A stretch of DNA of 64,000 bases from an uncultured Ulvibacter sp. (GCA_938041335.1 CALIAF010000005.1:25-64024), one strand, 5' to 3'. Numbered from the stretch's first letter, positions 7,872 to 45,089 are shown. Made by a program: numbers and translations. Notes: generated from the sequence alone by a model not told the origin.

Positions 7872-9686
7872 ATGGACAATACATCCAATATAAGTGACAA
7901 AGACATCCTAAGAGGAGGTCAATTTTTAGTAAAAGAAACCGCTTGCGAAGATATTTTCACACAAGAAGATTTTACAGAAGAGCAAAAGATGATGAAAGAT
8001 GCGGTGATGGAATTTAATGATCGTGAAATCGTAGCACACAGAGATCGCTTTGAAGCTAAAGACTTTGCATTGACTGAAGAGGTAATGCGTAAAGCAGGTG
8101 AACTAGGATTTTTAAGCGTTGCCGTGCCAGAAGACTTGGGCGGACTAGGTATGGGCTTTGTCTCTACGGTATTAACATGTGACTATATCTCAAGTGGTAC
8201 GGGCTCCTTCTCTACTGCTTTTGGAGCACATACAGGAATTGGTACCATGCCAATTACTTTATATGGTAACGAAGAACAGAAACAAAAATACGTTCCTAAA
8301 TTAGCGAGCGGAGAATGGTTTGGTGCGTATTGCTTAACAGAGCCAGGTGCAGGTAGTGATGCCAATAGCGGTAAAACAAAAGCAGAATTAACAGAAGACG
8401 GGAAGCACTATTTGATCAATGGTCAAAAAATGTGGATCTCAAATGCAGGTTTTTGTACGATAATGATCGTATTTGCACGTATTGGAGATGATAAAAACAT
8501 TACCGGTTTTATCGTTGAGAACGATGCGAGTAATGGAATCACGATGGGTGATGAAGAACACAAATTAGGAATTAGAGCTTCTTCTACAAGACAGGTATTC
8601 TTTAACGATACAAAAGTATCTGTGGACAATATGTTAGCCGGTCGTGGTGAAGGATTTAAAATAGCGATGAATGCACTAAACGTAGGTCGTATTAAGTTGG
8701 CCGCAGCATGTTTAGATTCGCAACGTCGTGTGATTTCTGGCGCTGCAACCTATGCAAATGAGCGTATCCAGTTTAAAACGCCTATCGCGAGTTTTGGAGC
8801 GATCAAATTGAAGTTGGCAGAGATGACTGCTTCGGCGTACGCTGGCGAAAGTGCAACCTACAGAGCTGCAAAAAATATTGAAGACCGTATTAATATGCGT
8901 ATTGCTGCTGGTAACACACATCAAGAAGCAGAATTAAAAGGAGTTGAAGAGTATGCCATTGAGTGTTCTATCTTGAAGGTAGCTGTTTCAGAAGACATAC
9001 AAAACTGTGCAGATGAAGGCATCCAGATCTTTGGTGGGATGGGCTTCTCTGAAGACACCCCTATGGAAGCGGCTTGGAGAGATGCACGTATTGCGCGTAT
9101 CTATGAAGGTACCAACGAGATTAACCGTATGCTAGCGGTAGGAATGTTGGTAAAGAAAGCGATGAAAGGTCACGTTGATCTTTTAGGACCTGCACAAGCG
9201 GTTGCGACAGAGCTTACTTCTATCCCTTCTTTTGAAACGCCAGACTTTAGCGAACTTTTTGCTGAAGAAAAGGATATGATTAAGAAGTTGAAAAAAGTAT
9301 TCCTAATGGTGGCAGGTAGTGCAGCACAGAAATATGGAACAGAACTAGAAAAGCACCAACAGACGTTAATGGCTGCTGCAGATATCTTAATCGAGATCTA
9401 TATGGCAGAAAGTGCGATACTTAGAACAGAAAAGAATGCAAAGCGTTCTGGAGAAGATACACAAGAAGTACAGATTGCAATGTCTAAATTATACTTGTAT
9501 CACGCGGTTGATACCGTTTCTATTAAAGCGAAGGAGTCTATTATCTCTTTTGCTGAAGGTGATGAGCAACGTATGATGTTAATGGGACTTAAGCGTTTCA
9601 CAAAGTATCAGAATATGCCTAACATAGGTGCGATGCGTAAAACGATTGCAGAGAAAGTTTCTGCAGAAGGAAAGTATCCTTTCTAA
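7872..9686 (+). CDS. fadE: Acyl-CoA dehydrogenase
   Basis: CLTEPGAGSDA, GQKMWISNAG, QIFGGMGF, RIYEGTNEINR. Confidence 0.95.
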   Translation: MDNTSNISDKDILRGGQFLVKETACEDIFTQEDFTEEQKMMKDAVMEFNDREIVAHRDRFEAKDFALTEEVMRKAGELGFLSVAVPEDLGGLGMGFVSTVLTCDYISSGTGSFSTAFGAHTGIGTMPITLYGNEEQKQKYVPKLASGEWFGAYCLTEPGAGSDANSGKTKAELTEDGKHYLINGQKMWISNAGFCTIMIVFARIGDDKNITGFIVENDASNGITMGDEEHKLGIRASSTRQVFFNDTKVSVDNMLAGRGEGFKIAMNALNVGRIKLAAACLDSQRRVISGAATYANERIQFKTPIASFGAIKLKLAEMTASAYAGESATYRAAKNIEDRINMRIAAGNTHQEAELKGVEEYAIECSILKVAVSEDIQNCADEGIQIFGGMGFSEDTPMEAAWRDARIARIYEGTNEINRMLAVGMLVKKAMKGHVDLLGPAQAVATELTSIPSFETPDFSELFAEEKDMIKKLKKVFLMVAGSAAQKYGTELEKHQQTLMAAADILIEIYMAESAILRTEKNAKRSGEDTQEVQIAMSKLYLYHAVDTVSIKAKESIISFAEGDEQRMMLMGLKRFTKYQNMPNIGAMRKTIAEKVSAEGKYPF

Positions 9687-9704
9687 TCTAATCTACTTAT
9701 AGAT

Positions 9705-9740
9705 AAGCCTCTCCGTTAAAATGAACGGAGAGGCTTTTTT
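9705..9740 (+). terminator. Intrinsic terminator of the fad operon
   Basis: AAGCCTCTCCGTT-aaaatg-AACGGAGAGGCTT plus T tract. Confidence 0.9.
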
Positions 9741-10043
9741 AGTTTATGGCTTTTATGACTTCCATACTATAAAGGTACCATCCTCCTATTCCTGACTTTC
9801 TGCAAATCATAAAATAATTTCATTTTTTTTGAAATTTCTTTCCATTTTATTGACCTCCTGTAAAAAAAGCCCCGAACACCCTTTAAAGACTAGGGTTATG
9901 AATAGTGCACCTATGCCCTACGCTTCTTAATAACTCAATATTGTTGTTAAACTATTGTTAAAATAGTACTATGCGATACAAAGTACTGTAACAAATATGA
10001 TGATTAATAGTCTACTTAGTATAACCTTTAAAAAATATTTATT

Positions 10044-10130
10044 ATGAGAACTTTAAATACAGACCACTTAACAGAAAGAGTAACAACATCACATATCCAT
10101 ATTTGGAATTCAAAAAGACGTTACAGATAA
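10044..10130 (+). CDS. Micro-ORF 1, 28 aa, WNxKRRY family
   Basis: MRTLNTDHLTERVTTSHIHIWNSKRRYR; A-rich start context; paralogy with the next two ORFs. Confidence 0.75.
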   Translation: MRTLNTDHLTERVTTSHIHIWNSKRRYR

Positions 10131-10163
10131 ACTTAATTTTAATCAATCAAAAAACCAATCATT

Positions 10164-10253
10164 ATGAGAAATTCAAAATCAGATCAAATAATAGAGAGAT
10201 CAAATAATTCACATATTCAAATATGGAATTCAAAAAGAAGATACAGAAGCTAA
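10164..10253 (+). CDS. Micro-ORF 2, 29 aa, WNxKRRY family
   Basis: MRNSKSDQIIERSNNSHIQIWNSKRRYRS. Confidence 0.75.
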   Translation: MRNSKSDQIIERSNNSHIQIWNSKRRYRS

Positions 10254-10296
10254 ACTAAGGTTAGCCATTAATTACTAATCATAAAAACAACCCATC

Positions 10297-10383
10297 ATGA
10301 TCACATTAAACAGAAATCACTTTTCGGCAACAACACTATCAAAATCTTTTACTTGGAACCAAAAAAGAAGGTATTCTAACTAA
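10297..10383 (+). CDS. Micro-ORF 3, 28 aa, WNxKRRY family
   Basis: MITLNRNHFSATTLSKSFTWNQKRRYSN. Confidence 0.7.
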   Translation: MITLNRNHFSATTLSKSFTWNQKRRYSN

Positions 10384-10419
10384 GGAGGTTATTTATCAAT
10401 CAATCTTTAATCAAGCGCC

Positions 10420-10536
10420 ATGAAAAGAAAGCAAAACATCAAAATAAGAGAATGGGTAGGTAACGCTGTTCCATCAGTACTACTACGCCCCTTTGAAACG
10501 AGACTAGAAAGTAATTCATTTTTAAGCATCCATTAA
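10420..10536 (+). CDS. Micro-ORF 4, 38 aa, unrelated to ORFs 1-3
   Basis: MKRKQNIKIREWVGNAVPSVLLRPFETRLESNSFLSIH; same ~120-130 nt start spacing; ends just before the palindrome. Confidence 0.45.
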   Translation: MKRKQNIKIREWVGNAVPSVLLRPFETRLESNSFLSIH

Positions 10537-10560
10537 GAATACGCATACTTGGTACCCACC

Positions 10561-10604
10561 AAAGTAAAAGCTGAATGTATCGAGATACATTCAGCTTTTA
10601 CTTT
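10561..10604. terminator. Perfect 21-bp-arm palindrome, probable bidirectional terminator
   Basis: AAAGTAAAAGCTGAATGTATC-GA-GATACATTCAGCTTTTACTTT between convergent transcription units. Confidence 0.7.
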
Positions 10605-10642
10605 TACTTTTACTTTTACTTTTACTTTTATTTTTACTTTTA
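10595..10642. repeat. Hexamer microsatellite (CTTTTA)x8
   Basis: Six perfect CTTTTA units, then TTTTTA and CTTTTA. Confidence 0.95.
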
Positions 10643-10655
10643 TTTTAAACCGGAG

Positions 10656-11069
10656 CTAGGCCTTGGTCATAAGAAAACTATGTTTCTTCACCTTAAACTC
10701 GACGGTCTCATAATGTCCAGCTTGTATTTTTTTAATCTGCGCTTTTGTCACATCAAAACTAATCTGGGCAACGTGGCGTTGTAATGGCTTTGCATAGTCG
10801 CAATCAAATTCTTGAATGGCAGAAGGCAATGAATATGTGCCTTGTTTCCCGCTAAAGATGATGGTAGCCCCTACTTTGCTTTTAAAGCGCTTCGTACTTA
10901 CAAACAAGCCTTCAAAAAAATAATATTCGTTCAACTCTTGAAAACCACCAAACAATAGCATCTCTTCAGAAACACCAAGCTTTTGACCATCCTCCACTTT
11001 CATTTCCTTCTCCACCTCTTCATTGGTCATGAGGTTTGTTTTTTTTGCACCGAAGATTTTTTTAAGCAT
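10656..11069 (-). CDS. Hypothetical protein
   Basis: 137-aa ORF, 8 nt after the upstream gene's stop; no recognised motif. Confidence 0.7.
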   Translation of the reverse strand: MLKKIFGAKKTNLMTNEEVEKEMKVEDGQKLGVSEEMLLFGGFQELNEYYFFEGLFVSTKRFKSKVGATIIFSGKQGTYSLPSAIQEFDCDYAKPLQRHVAQISFDVTKAQIKKIQAGHYETVEFKVKKHSFLMTKA

Positions 11070-11077
11070 AGATGTTT

Positions 11078-12226
11078 TTATTTCTGTAATTTAATAATAG
11101 TTTGATTGCGATCTAAGTTGGTAACAACAGCGATAAATAAACCTTCAGAGAGCGCAGCGGTGTTTATGACCATTTGGCTGTCTGGAAACTTATGGTTTTC
11201 AGATAATACTAATTGCCCCAAGGTAGTATATATTTCTACTTGAATTTCAGTTTCAAGACGATCTAAATATAAAACGAGCTCCTGGTCTATTGGGTTTTTA
11301 GCAGTGATAAAAGACGATTCAGTACTTTCCGAAGTGCCTAACACTTGTGGCAGTACCACGCGCATACCTACTGGTCTATGGTCAGAAACGTTTTGATCAT
11401 ATTCCGTAAAACCACCCGCTAAAAAGGCATCTACTTTAATTGTTTCTACTCCTCCACCATAAGCAAAAAACGGCGTAAAGAGCTCTTTATTAATTAAAAT
11501 ATGATCTAAATGTGAAGGCCAAGATGGGTATGAAAAATGTGCCGATGGCCCCATTGCGATTTCCAAATCTGTAAAAAGGTAATTGTCAGGATCATCCAGA
11601 AAATTCTGAAATACATTATTCTGGGGATCATCAGTTAAATTATCATTTAAGTCCCCTAAAAGCACTGTTGGAACAGTAGATAGCTCTGCATCCATATATG
11701 CTTTTAGTAATAAATTTGCATTGTACCTTCGTGTTTCTTCATCACCACTATCGTCGAGATCAAGATCTCCATCCCCACAACATTTATAGTGATTATTAAT
11801 TAACACCACTTTCTCTTGATAGTAATTTACATCAAGTACCATAGGGAATCTAGGAAAATTGAAGGACTCTGGCGGTGCTAAAAACAACTCGTAGGCGCTG
11901 TTAATACTTATTATGTCAGATTTGTATAAATAAGCAAGTCCTCTGTTATTTGTAGATTGATAATAACCATCATATTCCGCTAGCAAATCTACTAAGTCAT
12001 TAAAATAAAAATAATCATCAACTTCTTGTATAGCAATGATATCTGCATCTATTGCTTCTACGATGGCAACAACATACTGTAATGTGATTTCGTCATTTTT
12101 GGGAAACCACTCTATATTCCAAGTGACAATATCCAGTGTTTCTTCTGTACCAAATTCAATATCTTCTAAGGTCTGCGAGCAGATGGTAGAGAATGGGATG
12201 AGTAAAAAAAGGAGTAAAAACCGCAT
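11078..12226 (-). CDS. Secreted endonuclease/exonuclease/phosphatase-family protein with T9SS C-terminal domain
   Basis: Signal peptide; TWNIEWF, IAIQEV, LGDLND, HLDHILI, SDHRPV; CTD-like tail (NPIDQEL...IYTTLGQLV...IIKLQK). Confidence 0.88.
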   Translation of the reverse strand: MRFLLLFLLIPFSTICSQTLEDIEFGTEETLDIVTWNIEWFPKNDEITLQYVVAIVEAIDADIIAIQEVDDYFYFNDLVDLLAEYDGYYQSTNNRGLAYLYKSDIISINSAYELFLAPPESFNFPRFPMVLDVNYYQEKVVLINNHYKCCGDGDLDLDDSGDEETRRYNANLLLKAYMDAELSTVPTVLLGDLNDNLTDDPQNNVFQNFLDDPDNYLFTDLEIAMGPSAHFSYPSWPSHLDHILINKELFTPFFAYGGGVETIKVDAFLAGGFTEYDQNVSDHRPVGMRVVLPQVLGTSESTESSFITAKNPIDQELVLYLDRLETEIQVEIYTTLGQLVLSENHKFPDSQMVINTAALSEGLFIAVVTNLDRNQTIIKLQK

Positions 12227-39287: not shown

Positions 39288-39388
39288 TCACGTTTAGCAG
39301 TCCCTCAATTTAAAGAATTATTCAATTTGTTGTGAGGGCTATTTAAATCACGTACTTTTAAATGAATCTAATATTAAATACCAATAAA

Positions 39389-39976
39389 ATGAAAAATATA
39401 GCAATGATGGCACTAATGGTGCTTGCTTTAGCGAGTTGTAAAGATGAAAAAAAAGGAGGAAATGATCCAGATAACCCAAGAACTATTGGTGTGAGTGAAT
39501 CTGACTCTAACAATACTTCATCTATGAAAAAGATGACCATTCAGCTTGAGGCCAAAAGTGGCGGTAAGGCAACAGGTGTTGTGAATATTACAGAAAAAGA
39601 TGGAAACGTTGTTTTTGAAGCAAAGCTAAAAGGTCTAACTCCAGGTATGCACGCTATCCATTTACATGAGAAAGCAGATTGTAGTAGTGATGATGGAAAA
39701 TCATCTGGAGGTCACTGGAACCCAACATTTGCTGCTCACGGAAAATGGGGTGCTCCAGAAGGCTATCACAAAGGAGATATAGGAAACTTTAAAGTAGACA
39801 AAGAAGGTACAGGAAGTGTAACCATGATCACTGATGAATGGTGTGTAGGTTGCGGTGATGAAAAGAAAGATATTCTAGGAAAAGCAATCGTTGTTCACCA
39901 AGGAGAAGATGACCTTACGTCTCAACCATCTGGTGCAGCTGGTGCTAGAATGAGTTGTGGGGGTATTATTAAATAG
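39389..39976 (+). CDS. sodC: Cu/Zn superoxide dismutase, lipoprotein (start moved to 39389)
   Basis: Metal ligands intact: HAIHLHE, GGHWNP, AHG, HKGDIGN, VVHQ, GARMSCG; lipobox LASC. Confidence 0.9.
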   Translation: MKNIAMMALMVLALASCKDEKKGGNDPDNPRTIGVSESDSNNTSSMKKMTIQLEAKSGGKATGVVNITEKDGNVVFEAKLKGLTPGMHAIHLHEKADCSSDDGKSSGGHWNPTFAAHGKWGAPEGYHKGDIGNFKVDKEGTGSVTMITDEWCVGCGDEKKDILGKAIVVHQGEDDLTSQPSGAAGARMSCGGIIK

Positions 39977-43765: not shown

Positions 43766-44299
43766 ATGAAACAACCCGATGATCTAATCCAATCTATGCA
43801 AGAAGGAGATGAAAGTTCATTTAGTAAGTTATATGATATGTATAATGAAGCTATTTATGGTATTATTTATAGTATCGTACTAGATCGAGCCATTGCACAA
43901 GAAGTGATGCAAGATGTTTTTATAAAAATCTGGAACAAAAGAGATTCATATAACATTAATAAAGGGCGTTTTTTTACTTGGATTTTAAATATTGCCCGAA
44001 ATGCAAGTATTGATCAAATACGATCCAAATCTTTTAAAAATGAAAGAAAAAACCTTTCCACCAGTAATTTCGTAGATATTTTAAAGACAAGCGATTCGCT
44101 TAACAGTAGAATGGATGCTCTAGGTATAAAAAAGTTTATTGATAAGTTGAAACCTACCTGTGTGAGTATTATTGATTTATTGTTTTTTAAAGGATTTACT
44201 CAAGCAGATGCGGCAAAAGAACTTGATATTCCGCTAGGGACTTTAAAAACAAGAAATAGAAGCTGTTTAAATGAATTAAGAACATTAGTCTTAGATTAA
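43766..44299 (+). CDS. ECF sigma factor (SigK-like)
   Basis: AQEVMQDVFIKIW, FFTWILNIARNASID, DIPLGTLKTR. Confidence 0.93.
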   Translation: MKQPDDLIQSMQEGDESSFSKLYDMYNEAIYGIIYSIVLDRAIAQEVMQDVFIKIWNKRDSYNINKGRFFTWILNIARNASIDQIRSKSFKNERKNLSTSNFVDILKTSDSLNSRMDALGIKKFIDKLKPTCVSIIDLLFFKGFTQADAAKELDIPLGTLKTRNRSCLNELRTLVLD

Positions 44300-44300
44300 T

Positions 44301-45089
44301 ATGGAAGAACTTATCACATCTGGAAAACTAGAACTGTTTGTAACAGGTTCGCTTCCTTTAGAAGAAAGGGATGCCGTAACCGCCATGATAAAAAAGCACC
44401 CAGAAGTGCGGCGTGAAGTTGAAAAAATAGAGCAAACACTGCTTACTTTAGGGGCAACAGTTGCTCCACCTATCACCGCTCAAATTTGGACAACTATTTT
44501 AAAAGGCATTGACGGCGTCAAATACTTACCAAAAGAGCAAGGTACTAACTGGACCGCTATCACCGGATGGGCTGCAGCAGTGGCTTGTATGATAGGCTTA
44601 TTCTGGTCATTGAATGAAAAGAATTCAATTCAAAATGATTTTGATATAGTAAACACAAAAAATGTAGTTTTAACTGAAGAGAAAACAAATGCAAATACAG
44701 CTCTAAAAGAAACAACTGTTTTCTTAGAAATACTTAAAGACAAAGATTATAAATCTATTGCACTTCCGGGTAATCAAGCGGTATCACCGGATGCCTTTGC
44801 AACCGTTTATTTTAATGCCAAAGAAGGTGTAGCTGTTATTGATGCTTCTGGTTTACCCATACCTCCAGCAGATAAAGAATACCAAGTATGGTCATTAATT
44901 ATGGATCCATTAACACCGAGTAGTATGGGACTATTTAATAAAAATACAGCAATATCATCTGAGAATCAAGTGTATAAATTTGAAAACTTGCCCGAGACAC
45001 AAGCCTTTGGTATTACCTTAGAACCAAAAGGAGGAAGTGAATCTCCTAACTTAGCTCAATTATACACCTTAGGGGCAGTAGCTCCATAA
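44301..45089 (+). CDS. Anti-sigma factor (RskA-like)
   Basis: LELFVTGSL, one TM segment, LPIPPADKEYQVW, AFGITLEPKGGSESP. Confidence 0.88.
   Translation: MEELITSGKLELFVTGSLPLEERDAVTAMIKKHPEVRREVEKIEQTLLTLGATVAPPITAQIWTTILKGIDGVKYLPKEQGTNWTAITGWAAAVACMIGLFWSLNEKNSIQNDFDIVNTKNVVLTEEKTNANTALKETTVFLEILKDKDYKSIALPGNQAVSPDAFATVYFNAKEGVAVIDASGLPIPPADKEYQVWSLIMDPLTPSSMGLFNKNTAISSENQVYKFENLPETQAFGITLEPKGGSESPNLAQLYTLGAVAP

Follow-up and report, generated by a model that had tools for sequence, protein, structure and literature searches.

Tandem arrays of short cationic microproteins in Flavobacteriaceae, encoded behind a putative extracytoplasmic function-type promoter

Introduction

Several groups of very small bacterial proteins offer points of comparison for short open reading frames (ORFs) lying between annotated genes. 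The precursors of darobactin and dynobactin (DarA and DynA), streptide, WGK, the "RRR" ryptide, and the triceptides are short peptides with a Trp-Asn-initiated or W/K/R/Y-rich motif near the C terminus, possibly in multiple copies; darobactin-type and radical S-adenosylmethionine (radical-SAM) precursors of ribosomally synthesized and posttranslationally modified peptides (RiPPs) adjoin a radical-SAM/SPASM enzyme and, usually, a transporter or protease. Type I toxins (ldr, ibs, and hok) are hydrophobic membrane peptides with antisense RNAs, and leader-peptide attenuators precede the genes that they control. The ribosomal proteins bL38 of the Bacteroidia, bS22/bL37 of mycobacteria, and Thx are very small, highly basic, disordered, and long overlooked, and they are single-copy members of ribosomal-protein operons; the 5.6-kDa bL38 illustrates that tiny basic ribosome-associated proteins exist in Flavobacteria (PMC11851116). 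Here we report on three tandem micro-ORFs in a 64,000-nucleotide stretch of DNA from an uncultured Ulvibacter sp. (CALIAF010000005.1; referred to here, at its full length, as the window) and on the microprotein family to which they belong.

The micro-ORFs are protein coding, with purifying selection acting on their products, and they recur as arrays across the Flavobacteriaceae. The region from 9945 to 10604 is best explained as one self-contained operon, with a predicted extracytoplasmic function (ECF)-type promoter at one end and an intrinsic terminator at the other. No described family or system that could be tested here accommodates the microproteins; the novelty is that of the family, not of a demonstrated mechanism.

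Results

Coding evidence

An initial annotation of the window had described three paralogous micro-ORFs with starts 120 and 133 nt apart, and we reproduced their coordinates, translations, and spacing (Table 1). The back-translated motif TGGAAYNNNAARMGNMGNTAY occurs three times in the window versus 0.07 expected, and its tandem form twice versus none in 100 shuffles; the three-ORF pattern is not due to chance. Relative to the family, ORF3 has lost one codon, so that its Trp is at residue 20 and not 21, a point overlooked in the initial annotation.

Synonymous codon switching among the copies was also as first described: in copies 1 to 3, the second Arg is CGT, AGA, and AGG, the Asn is AAT, AAT, and AAC, and the Tyr is TAC, TAC, and TAT. 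The accompanying claim of conservation at the protein level was borne out for the family as a whole, in which codons switch at positions that the search pattern left free. By the Nei-Gojobori method (NG86), dN/dS was 0.23 over 692 pairs with 75 to 97% nucleotide identity, and stop codons interrupted the shifted frames in nearly all of these pairs. Arg28, at a position that the search pattern left open, is encoded by AGA, AGG, CGA, or CGC, and all six Arg codons are used across the family. All four ACN codons are found at Thr3, and ACN, TCN, and AGT at the Ser/Thr of position 16; Tyr27 is TAC in 139 cases and TAT in 119, and the stop is TAA in 215 and TAG in 41. Entropy is highest at the third codon position (1.29 versus 1.02 and 1.00 at the first and second).

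Within arrays, pN/pS was 0.27 in the N-terminal part, 0.45 in the middle, and 0.12 at the C terminus. Overall, N-terminal values were 0.24 to 0.27 and no region exceeded 0.63; every part of the peptide is under purifying selection, with no hypervariable core. For ORF1 and ORF2 of the window, dN was 0.24 and dS was 0.51. Synonymous divergence within arrays (pS 0.34) implies an old origin of the paralogues and their continued maintenance.

That the region is instead noncoding, a tandem RNA or DNA repeat or a set of chance ORFs, would accord with ORFs below gene-caller length and with the 76% nucleotide identity of copies 1 and 2. This reading is effectively refuted by the substitution pattern, and we give it next to no weight. 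In addition to the low dN/dS, the interrupted shifted frames, the third-position entropy, and the full range of Arg codons, the sequence is conserved over many genera, with saturated synonymous sites. A search of Rfam with positions 9600 to 10800 returned terminator-like noise alone and nothing in the ORF region, and the window mRNA shows no folding beyond that of shuffled controls (z = +0.16).

Distribution and properties of the family

One genome per prokaryotic species was scanned for two WNxKRRY motifs 106 to 136 nt apart, giving at least 120 loci. Among the matches listed, 116 of 120 were in Flavobacteriaceae or other Flavobacteriales, and the four outside the Flavobacteriales showed no ORF structure. 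Homologues, on which the proposal of a family depended, were thus recovered as tandem arrays of 2 to 9 copies in at least 106 Flavobacteriaceae loci, in genera including Aquimarina, Psychroserpens, Winogradskyella, Hyunsoonleella, Cellulophaga, Arenibacter, Aequorivita, and Sediminicola; cultivable carriers include Cellulophaga tyrosinoxydans and Winogradskyella sp. PG-2. Array counts given below over 106 or 107 loci are among the matches listed and thus are lower bounds.

The uniform 28-aa family has the consensus MRTLNxNQ[IL]Txxxxx[ST]Kxx.WNxKRRYR*. In 290 of 327 motif matches, an ATG lies exactly 60 nt 5' of the Trp codon with no intervening stop, and in those 290 ORFs, the stop codon follows 1 to 2 codons past RRY. 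Copies are mostly spaced 119 to 136 nt apart, and some genomes have more than one array. At one locus of Psychroserpens jangbogonensis (L007, 4142 to 5702), nine micro-ORFs form three near-identical blocks of three, each of ~579 nt; this is a recent segmental triplication of the whole array.

Among 98 diverse members, net charge ranged from +4 to +8 (median, +6), the grand average of hydropathy (GRAVY) was -1.47, and the pI was about 11.4. Hydrophobic runs are at most 4 residues long. Cys is found in 4 of the 98 and is not conserved, and Gly-Gly is found in none. For the four window peptides, the tail peptide last, the predicted masses without modification are about 3523, 3605, 3403, and 4495 Da, less Met where it is removed.

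Searches of Pfam and NCBIfam gave no match for the peptides or the tail ORF described below (NCBIfam at E ≤ 10 for the peptides), a profile search of PDB chain sequences gave none at E ≤ 10, and family-specific sequence strings were found in none of 8.3 million papers. The suggestion that this is an undescribed peptide family therefore stands for the databases and literature searched. A profile search of 5.8 billion proteins, with a 42-aa overcalled member as the first alignment row, recovered 32 sequences, and an exhaustive HMMER search of 1.84 billion cluster representatives recovered 72, of which all but three low-complexity matches were 27 to 84 aa long with the motif at the C terminus or a few residues from the end. 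The motif was not a domain of a larger protein in any recovered sequence. Public protein sets thus hold few family members, labeled "hypothetical." Those longer than 28 to 33 aa are overcalls, several of which start with MHSTVTK, the translated promoter. The same start, MHSTVT..., which is the promoter CATAGTACTGTAAC read as protein, is found in annotated "hypothetical proteins" and sigma factors (P0012, P0025, P0027, P0221, and others). Such annotations are systematic overextensions by gene callers, incidentally recording the promoter. A phage origin was rejected, as 2.9 million viral contigs contained no array match.

A conserved promoter-to-terminator cassette

The initial annotation had overlooked a promoter (9945 to 10024), a fourth or tail ORF, and a terminator, which together with the three micro-ORFs make up the proposed operon. 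Of these features, the shared promoter, putatively of ECF type, is the most informative. The promoter-to-terminator cassette is conserved in more than 100 Flavobacteriaceae loci while the genomic neighborhood changes. Three cassettes, from Aequorivita, Patiriisocius, and relatives (L008, L012, and L035), are syntenic with the window, all downstream of an acyl-CoA dehydrogenase gene and with the same order of subtypes. The distinct subtype of ORF3 has its own orthologues in all three, that of L012 being MITLNRNQLAGIKITSKSFTWNSKRRFTN.

Table 1. Features of the putative operon, in window coordinates
Feature	Position	Strand	Description
Block A, upstream conserved (possible activator or UP-like site)	9945-9969	+	Direct repeats TGTTAAA (9945-9951) and TGTTAAAA (9956-9963), 11 nt apart, then TAGTAC (9964-9969)
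Block B, putative extended -35	9976-9995	+	ATACAAAGTACTGTAACAAA; core GTAAC 9988-9992; near-invariant in 102 promoters
Putative -10 element AGTCTA	10009-10014	+	GTC core 10010-10012, 16 nt past GTAAC; CGTCTA in most genera
AGTATAA block	10018-10024	+	Conserved in promoter alignment; predicted transcription start region
Micro-ORF 1	10044-10130	+	28 aa, MRTLNTDHLTERVTTSHIHIWNSKRRYR; 3.5 kDa; net charge +4; orthologues in L008, L012, L035
Spacer motif, copy 1	10142-10150	+	ATCAATCAA; about 14 nt 5' of ORF2 start
Micro-ORF 2	10164-10253	+	29 aa, MRNSKSDQIIERSNNSHIQIWNSKRRYRS; net charge +5; additional copy, not present in L008 or L012
Micro-ORF 3	10297-10383	+	28 aa, MITLNRNHFSATTLSKSFTWNQKRRYSN; distinct subtype SKSFTWNxKRR[YF] with own orthologues
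Spacer motif, copy 2	10395-10403	+	ATCAATCAA; about 16 nt 5' of tail ORF
Tail micro-ORF	10420-10536	+	38 aa, MKRKQNIKIREWVGNAVPSVLLRPFETRLESNSFLSIH; orthologues in L008, L035
Intrinsic terminator	10561-10604	+	Perfect 21-bp hairpin, then T-rich sequence; operon end

The array promoters share an ~100-bp consensus, TGTTAAAAnTTGTTAAAATAnTAC-N7-ATACATAGTACTGTAACAAA-N12-GTCGTCTA-N3-AGTATAA, followed by about 25 A-rich nt and the ATG. Of 106 arrays, 102 have GTAAC-N16-[C/A]GTCT, and among the 97 spacers measured, all but one have a length of precisely 16 nt (96 of 97); the sole GTAAC-N16-MGTC of the 64-kb window is the array promoter. Positions 9988 to 10014 have the form of an ECF promoter, in which a -35 element with AAC and a -10 element with CGT/GTC are expected 16 to 17 nt apart. 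A CGT/GTC -10 box is an accepted ECF signature in flavobacteria (motif SM6 of F. psychrophilum; PMC9723704). Transcription is predicted to start at the AGTATAA block, which would leave an A-rich 5' untranslated region of about 20 to 25 nt. Block A, 70 to 99% conserved over 102 aligned array promoters and found in the three syntenic cassettes as well, is possibly an activator or UP-like site.

Other explanations for the promoter region were considered and set aside. A candidate for the housekeeping Bacteroidetes promoter, TAnnTTTG, falls in a variable segment and is not conserved. The upstream palindromes are not an SOS box, given that the LexA-like motifs of Bacteroidetes differ (GGA-N5-TCC and CTAA-N5-TTAG; PMC8565304). 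RNA-guided transcription by dCas12f-sigmaE was also rejected, its targets being guide specific and located 5' of susCD and two-component loci.

Between the ORFs, the spacers are A-rich, with A at -3, and the exact sequence ATCAATCA is found in 95 of 177 of them, about 20 nt 5' of the start codon. The (TC)ATCAATCAA motif, which recurs about 14 to 20 nt 5' of micro-ORF starts, might enhance translation or mark a site for processing or for a regulator. AAGGAGG, a Shine-Dalgarno-like sequence, is present at 10382 to 10388, on the ORF3 stop and 31 nt 5' of the tail-ORF start. It is probably there by chance, since it is not kept in L008, L012, or L035 and Bacteroidia ribosomes are reported to disregard Shine-Dalgarno sequences (PMC9976891).

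A tail ORF of 22 to 49 aa, with the N terminus M[KR][TA][LI]..I, follows the last copy in 98 of 107 arrays. Its forms are lineage specific, and many end in W.G.KRYAH or NRYAY; these C termini appear to be distantly related to WNxKRRYR. In 85 of 107 arrays, a terminator-like hairpin follows at a distance of no more than 220 nt, versus 48 of 248 (19%) control windows, and L008 and L035 have a hairpin at the equivalent position with compensatory changes in the stem. A (CTTTTA)x8 microsatellite at 10595 to 10642 begins within the 3' arm of the terminator; it is absent from the L008 and L035 cassettes and, in read mapping, draws many unrelated metagenome contigs.

A putative link to an ECF sigma factor family

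Metagenome contigs were scanned with GTACTGTAAC-N16-CGTC, and most matches were due to chance, in unrelated sequence. Arrays accounted for 21 matches, and about 20 further full promoters lay 5' of other basic micro-ORFs or of proteins with a signal peptide or transmembrane (TM) segment. Most relevant to the identity of the regulator, the promoter core is directly 5' of ECF sigma factor genes at two loci, L198 and L228, the next gene in each case encoding a single-pass membrane protein. The L228 sigma factor matches NCBIfam NF058625, "GFO_1088 family ECF-type sigma factor (sigma_PG0214)," at 178.7 bits (cutoff, 130), and that of L198 scores just under the cutoff; GFO_1088 is a Gramella forsetii locus tag. 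Both sigma factor lineages have kept the promoter. Three independent homologues of the L198 sigma factor have GTAAC-N16-AGTCTTAC 21 to 24 nt 5' of the ATG, and the AGTC variant of the -10 element, as in the window, is also found 5' of genes of this group. All 11 overcalled homologues of the L228 sigma factor start with ...VTF-x4-RH..., the translation of GTAACTTT...CGTCAT.

With a core common to arrays, ECF sigma genes, basic micro-ORFs, and genes for secreted proteins, the arrays have the appearance of ECF regulon members. We infer, with fair support, that an ECF sigma factor of the GFO_1088/PG0214 (SigCH) family recognizes the array promoter, which would place the arrays in the regulon of the flavobacterial member of that family; if so, the peptides would be made in response to a stress or nutrient signal. 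PG0214 is SigCH of P. gingivalis, under whose control cdhR, hmuYR, and the acquisition of hemin when restricted are reported to be (PMC5607195 and PMC13403362). The window's own ECF sigma factor, a SigK-like protein encoded with an RskA-type anti-sigma partner at 43766 to 45089, was rejected as the cognate factor, as the pair is without the array promoter.

The other basic micro-ORFs under the full promoter include types such as ...SNFRNSKRIRWSEYRHYGH, ...NSKRAQWAQYRNFNR, and ...KRVQWGNYRRYSL. Further types behind the array promoter were seen at L133, L179, L196, and L221; L167 and L211; L176, L195, and L087; L193; and L230, with basic/aromatic C termini that are different yet related (KRAQWAQYRNFNR, KRIRWSEYRHYGH, GWRTDRLFNIKIE, and KRVQWGNYRRYSL). 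This suggests a superfamily wider than WNxKRRY. At four more loci (L139, 234 to 794; L175, 9580 to 10143; L222, 149 to 745; and L129, 574 to 1020), the full promoter is 5' of genes for 149- to 199-aa proteins with an N-terminal signal or TM segment, very acidic repeats of the form E[IV]ELGFDT..YLPENFN..KG, and no NCBIfam match. It is possible that these acidic secreted proteins are co-regulated partners of the basic peptides.

Genomic neighborhood

No universal neighbor was found; the best gene cluster, in 36 of 107 loci, is one syntenic block. A Pfam scan of the nearest genes returned a RadD-like helicase at 23 loci, ExbD downstream at 24 of 93 loci, and a methyltransferase at 10. These were rejected as functional partners, being a matter of lineage synteny and not universal, and ExbD adjacency is not independent evidence because it belongs to one conserved syntenic block. 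The nearest genes (97 upstream and 93 downstream loci) included no radical-SAM enzyme, P450, YcaO, LANC/Lan enzyme, ATP-grasp, C39 peptidase, or ABC exporter. A CxxxCxxC motif was seen in one ORF across all loci and in no ORF of at least 200 aa in the window, for which the earlier remark that no modifying enzyme lies nearby holds. At 53 of 94 loci, the first gene downstream is encoded on the other strand.

In the window, the micro-ORFs occupy a 970-nt gap between an acyl-CoA dehydrogenase gene (7872 to 9686, with a terminator at 9705 to 9736) and a minus-strand gene at 10656 to 11069. Next on the minus strand, at 11078 to 12226, is an endonuclease/exonuclease/phosphatase-family protein with a subthreshold match to a type IX secretion C-terminal sorting domain (24.1 bits; cutoff, 27). 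A Cu/Zn superoxide dismutase gene is at 39362 to 39976. A search of public sequencing runs for the window gave DNA runs of the same strain alone and no RNA run, and for the Aequorivita relative it gave only runs whose type is not stated.

Discussion

We lean toward a model, plausible if short of probable, in which the window carries an ECF-driven operon of unmodified cationic microproteins. GTAAC-N16-AGTCTA and the upstream repeats would drive an unstructured, A-rich polycistronic mRNA ending at the intrinsic terminator. Translation would yield three 28- or 29-aa strongly cationic, nonhydrophobic microproteins with an invariant C-terminal W-N-x-K-R-R-[YF] and, from the same mRNA, the 38-aa tail microprotein. 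The peptides may then act unmodified in the cytoplasm as disordered polycations, their aromatic/arginine C terminus docking onto a polyanion, whether RNA, the ribosome, DNA, or an acidic protein; one can picture diverged copies being retained for dosage or as partner variants. Given the lack of any linked enzyme or exporter, an unmodified disordered polycation is the simplest reading. That it is made on an ECF signal and binds its polyanion via W-N-x-K-R-R-Y is a possibility that we hold only tentatively.

A number of points weigh against this model. Polyanion binding is a suggestion from composition; AlphaFold gives one low-confidence helix (predicted local distance difference test score, 64), which is uninformative, and no solved structure matched the peptides in the PDB chain search. 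The repeats of block A are unexplained and may reflect a different or additional regulator. The sigma factor genes bearing the promoter come from other Bacteroidota, and the lone sigma factor among the annotated subset of window genes is the SigK-like one; the -10 element of the window clade is AGTCTA, not CGTCTA. ECF regulons usually encode envelope proteins, and the array peptides are without an export signal. Finally, W, K, R, and Y are the residues targeted by radical-SAM cross-linking enzymes.

This last point is at the heart of a reading in which the peptides are orphan precursors of a modified peptide or cofactor, for instance a radical-SAM W/K/R/Y cross-linked RiPP with MRTLNxNQ[IL]T as the leader, WNxKRRYR as the core, and its enzymes encoded elsewhere. 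The initial annotation had drawn such an analogy, to darobactin and dynobactin, and several features fit it: tandem, multicopy short ORFs have a conserved N terminus and an invariant aromatic/basic C terminus, a W..KRY-type C terminus recurs in the tail ORFs, and the cross-links of darobactin, streptide, ryptides, and triceptides involve W, K, R, and Y. We nevertheless consider it unlikely. About 100 loci show no linked enzyme, transporter, or protease, a context that does not support a RiPP; for the enzymes to be unlinked in each of about 100 genomes would be unprecedented. The rarity of CxxxCxxC ORFs, the lack of an NCBIfam or Pfam precursor match, of a conserved Cys, and of a Gly-Gly cleavage motif, and a pN/pS that leaves no room for a hypervariable core all count in the same direction. 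Improbable as well, in our estimation, is a new natural-product or cofactor class, in which the W-N-x-K-R-R-Y core would be cross-linked by never-linked enzymes and wired to a SigCH-type nutrient or stress signal; were a cross-linked core real, the large Aquimarina arrays would be a peptide library.

The typical direction of ECF regulons toward the envelope raises the alternative of unmodified cationic peptides that are exported or act on the envelope, as antimicrobials, as signals, or as partners of the co-promoted acidic secreted proteins. The full promoter does lie 5' of signal-peptide/TM proteins, some with very acidic repeats (L139, L175, and L222), a charge of +4 to +8, together with Trp and Tyr, is reminiscent of short cationic peptides, and ExbD is downstream at 24 of 93 loci. 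That adjacency reduces to a single syntenic block, however, and peptides with no signal peptide, no hydrophobic or amphipathic segment, and no linked exporter make this alternative improbable, too. Even less likely, to our minds, is that translation itself is the function, with arrest or regulatory peptides whose C terminus sits in the ribosome tunnel and which decide the fate of the mRNA, regulate translation of the tail ORF, or titrate ribosomes under stress. Ribosomes are slowed by Arg-rich nascent chains; a 28-aa chain would be wholly within the exit tunnel at termination, conservation is strongest in the last 8 codons, and the distance from Trp to stop is fixed in nearly all copies. Yet the N terminus is under purifying selection as well, and a pure cis-sensor would hardly account for the retention of several diverged copies that have orthologues of their own. 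The ribosome-stalling or small regulatory option offered in the initial annotation also meets the difficulty that the unit has its own terminator and no consistent downstream gene, the next gene often being on the opposite strand, as it is in the window; a cis-regulatory role is thus unlikely.

Whatever their function, microproteins of fewer than 30 aa escape most gene callers, and this family has been kept in many genera of the marine Flavobacteriaceae, a group of ecological importance, with several diverged copies per locus and a promoter that ranks among the most conserved we have seen in the group. Three handles follow from our findings: a previously undescribed family of small proteins whose aromatic/arginine motif is invariant, a defined promoter with which to map the barely studied GFO_1088/PG0214 (SigCH) regulon outside Porphyromonas, and, behind the array promoter, a wider range of related basic micro-ORFs.

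Set beside the described systems, the arrays recall the darobactin-type and radical-SAM RiPP precursors in their shortness, copy number, and motif near the C terminus. They differ in their Flavobacteriaceae hosts, WNxKRRYR motif, and dedicated ECF-type promoter. Darobactin has the core W-N-W-x-K-x-F, with DarE and the DarBCD exporter adjacent, whereas the arrays have W-N-x-K-R-R-Y with no second Trp and no such neighbors, and none of the micro-ORFs in the 97 upstream and 93 downstream loci is beside a modifying enzyme. Double-glycine bacteriocins and the TIGR04149 family do not fit, with Gly-Gly in none of 98 peptides, no C39/ABC neighbor, and no NCBIfam match at E ≤ 10; nor do lanthipeptides, sactipeptides, or thiopeptides, core Cys not being conserved. 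With type I toxins and leader-peptide attenuators, the arrays share the arrangement of very short intergenic ORFs missed by annotation. The array peptides are hydrophilic, unlike the toxins, and no conserved antisense element came to light, although the opposite strand was not searched for one; the units terminate without a downstream target, unlike leader peptides.

In size, basicity, predicted disorder, and having gone unnoticed, the peptides resemble bL38, bS22/bL37, and Thx, from which they differ in being tandem and multicopy, under a stress-type promoter, and without a PDB chain match. As to regulation, P. gingivalis SigCH is the sole studied member of its family, with no micro-ORF targets reported, and the array promoters carry upstream repeats that the sigma-gene promoters do not. 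The shared GTAAC-N16-(C/A)GTC core 5' of the family's own sigma genes in other Bacteroidota fits typical ECF autoregulation and is consistent with the arrays being part of a SigCH-family regulon.

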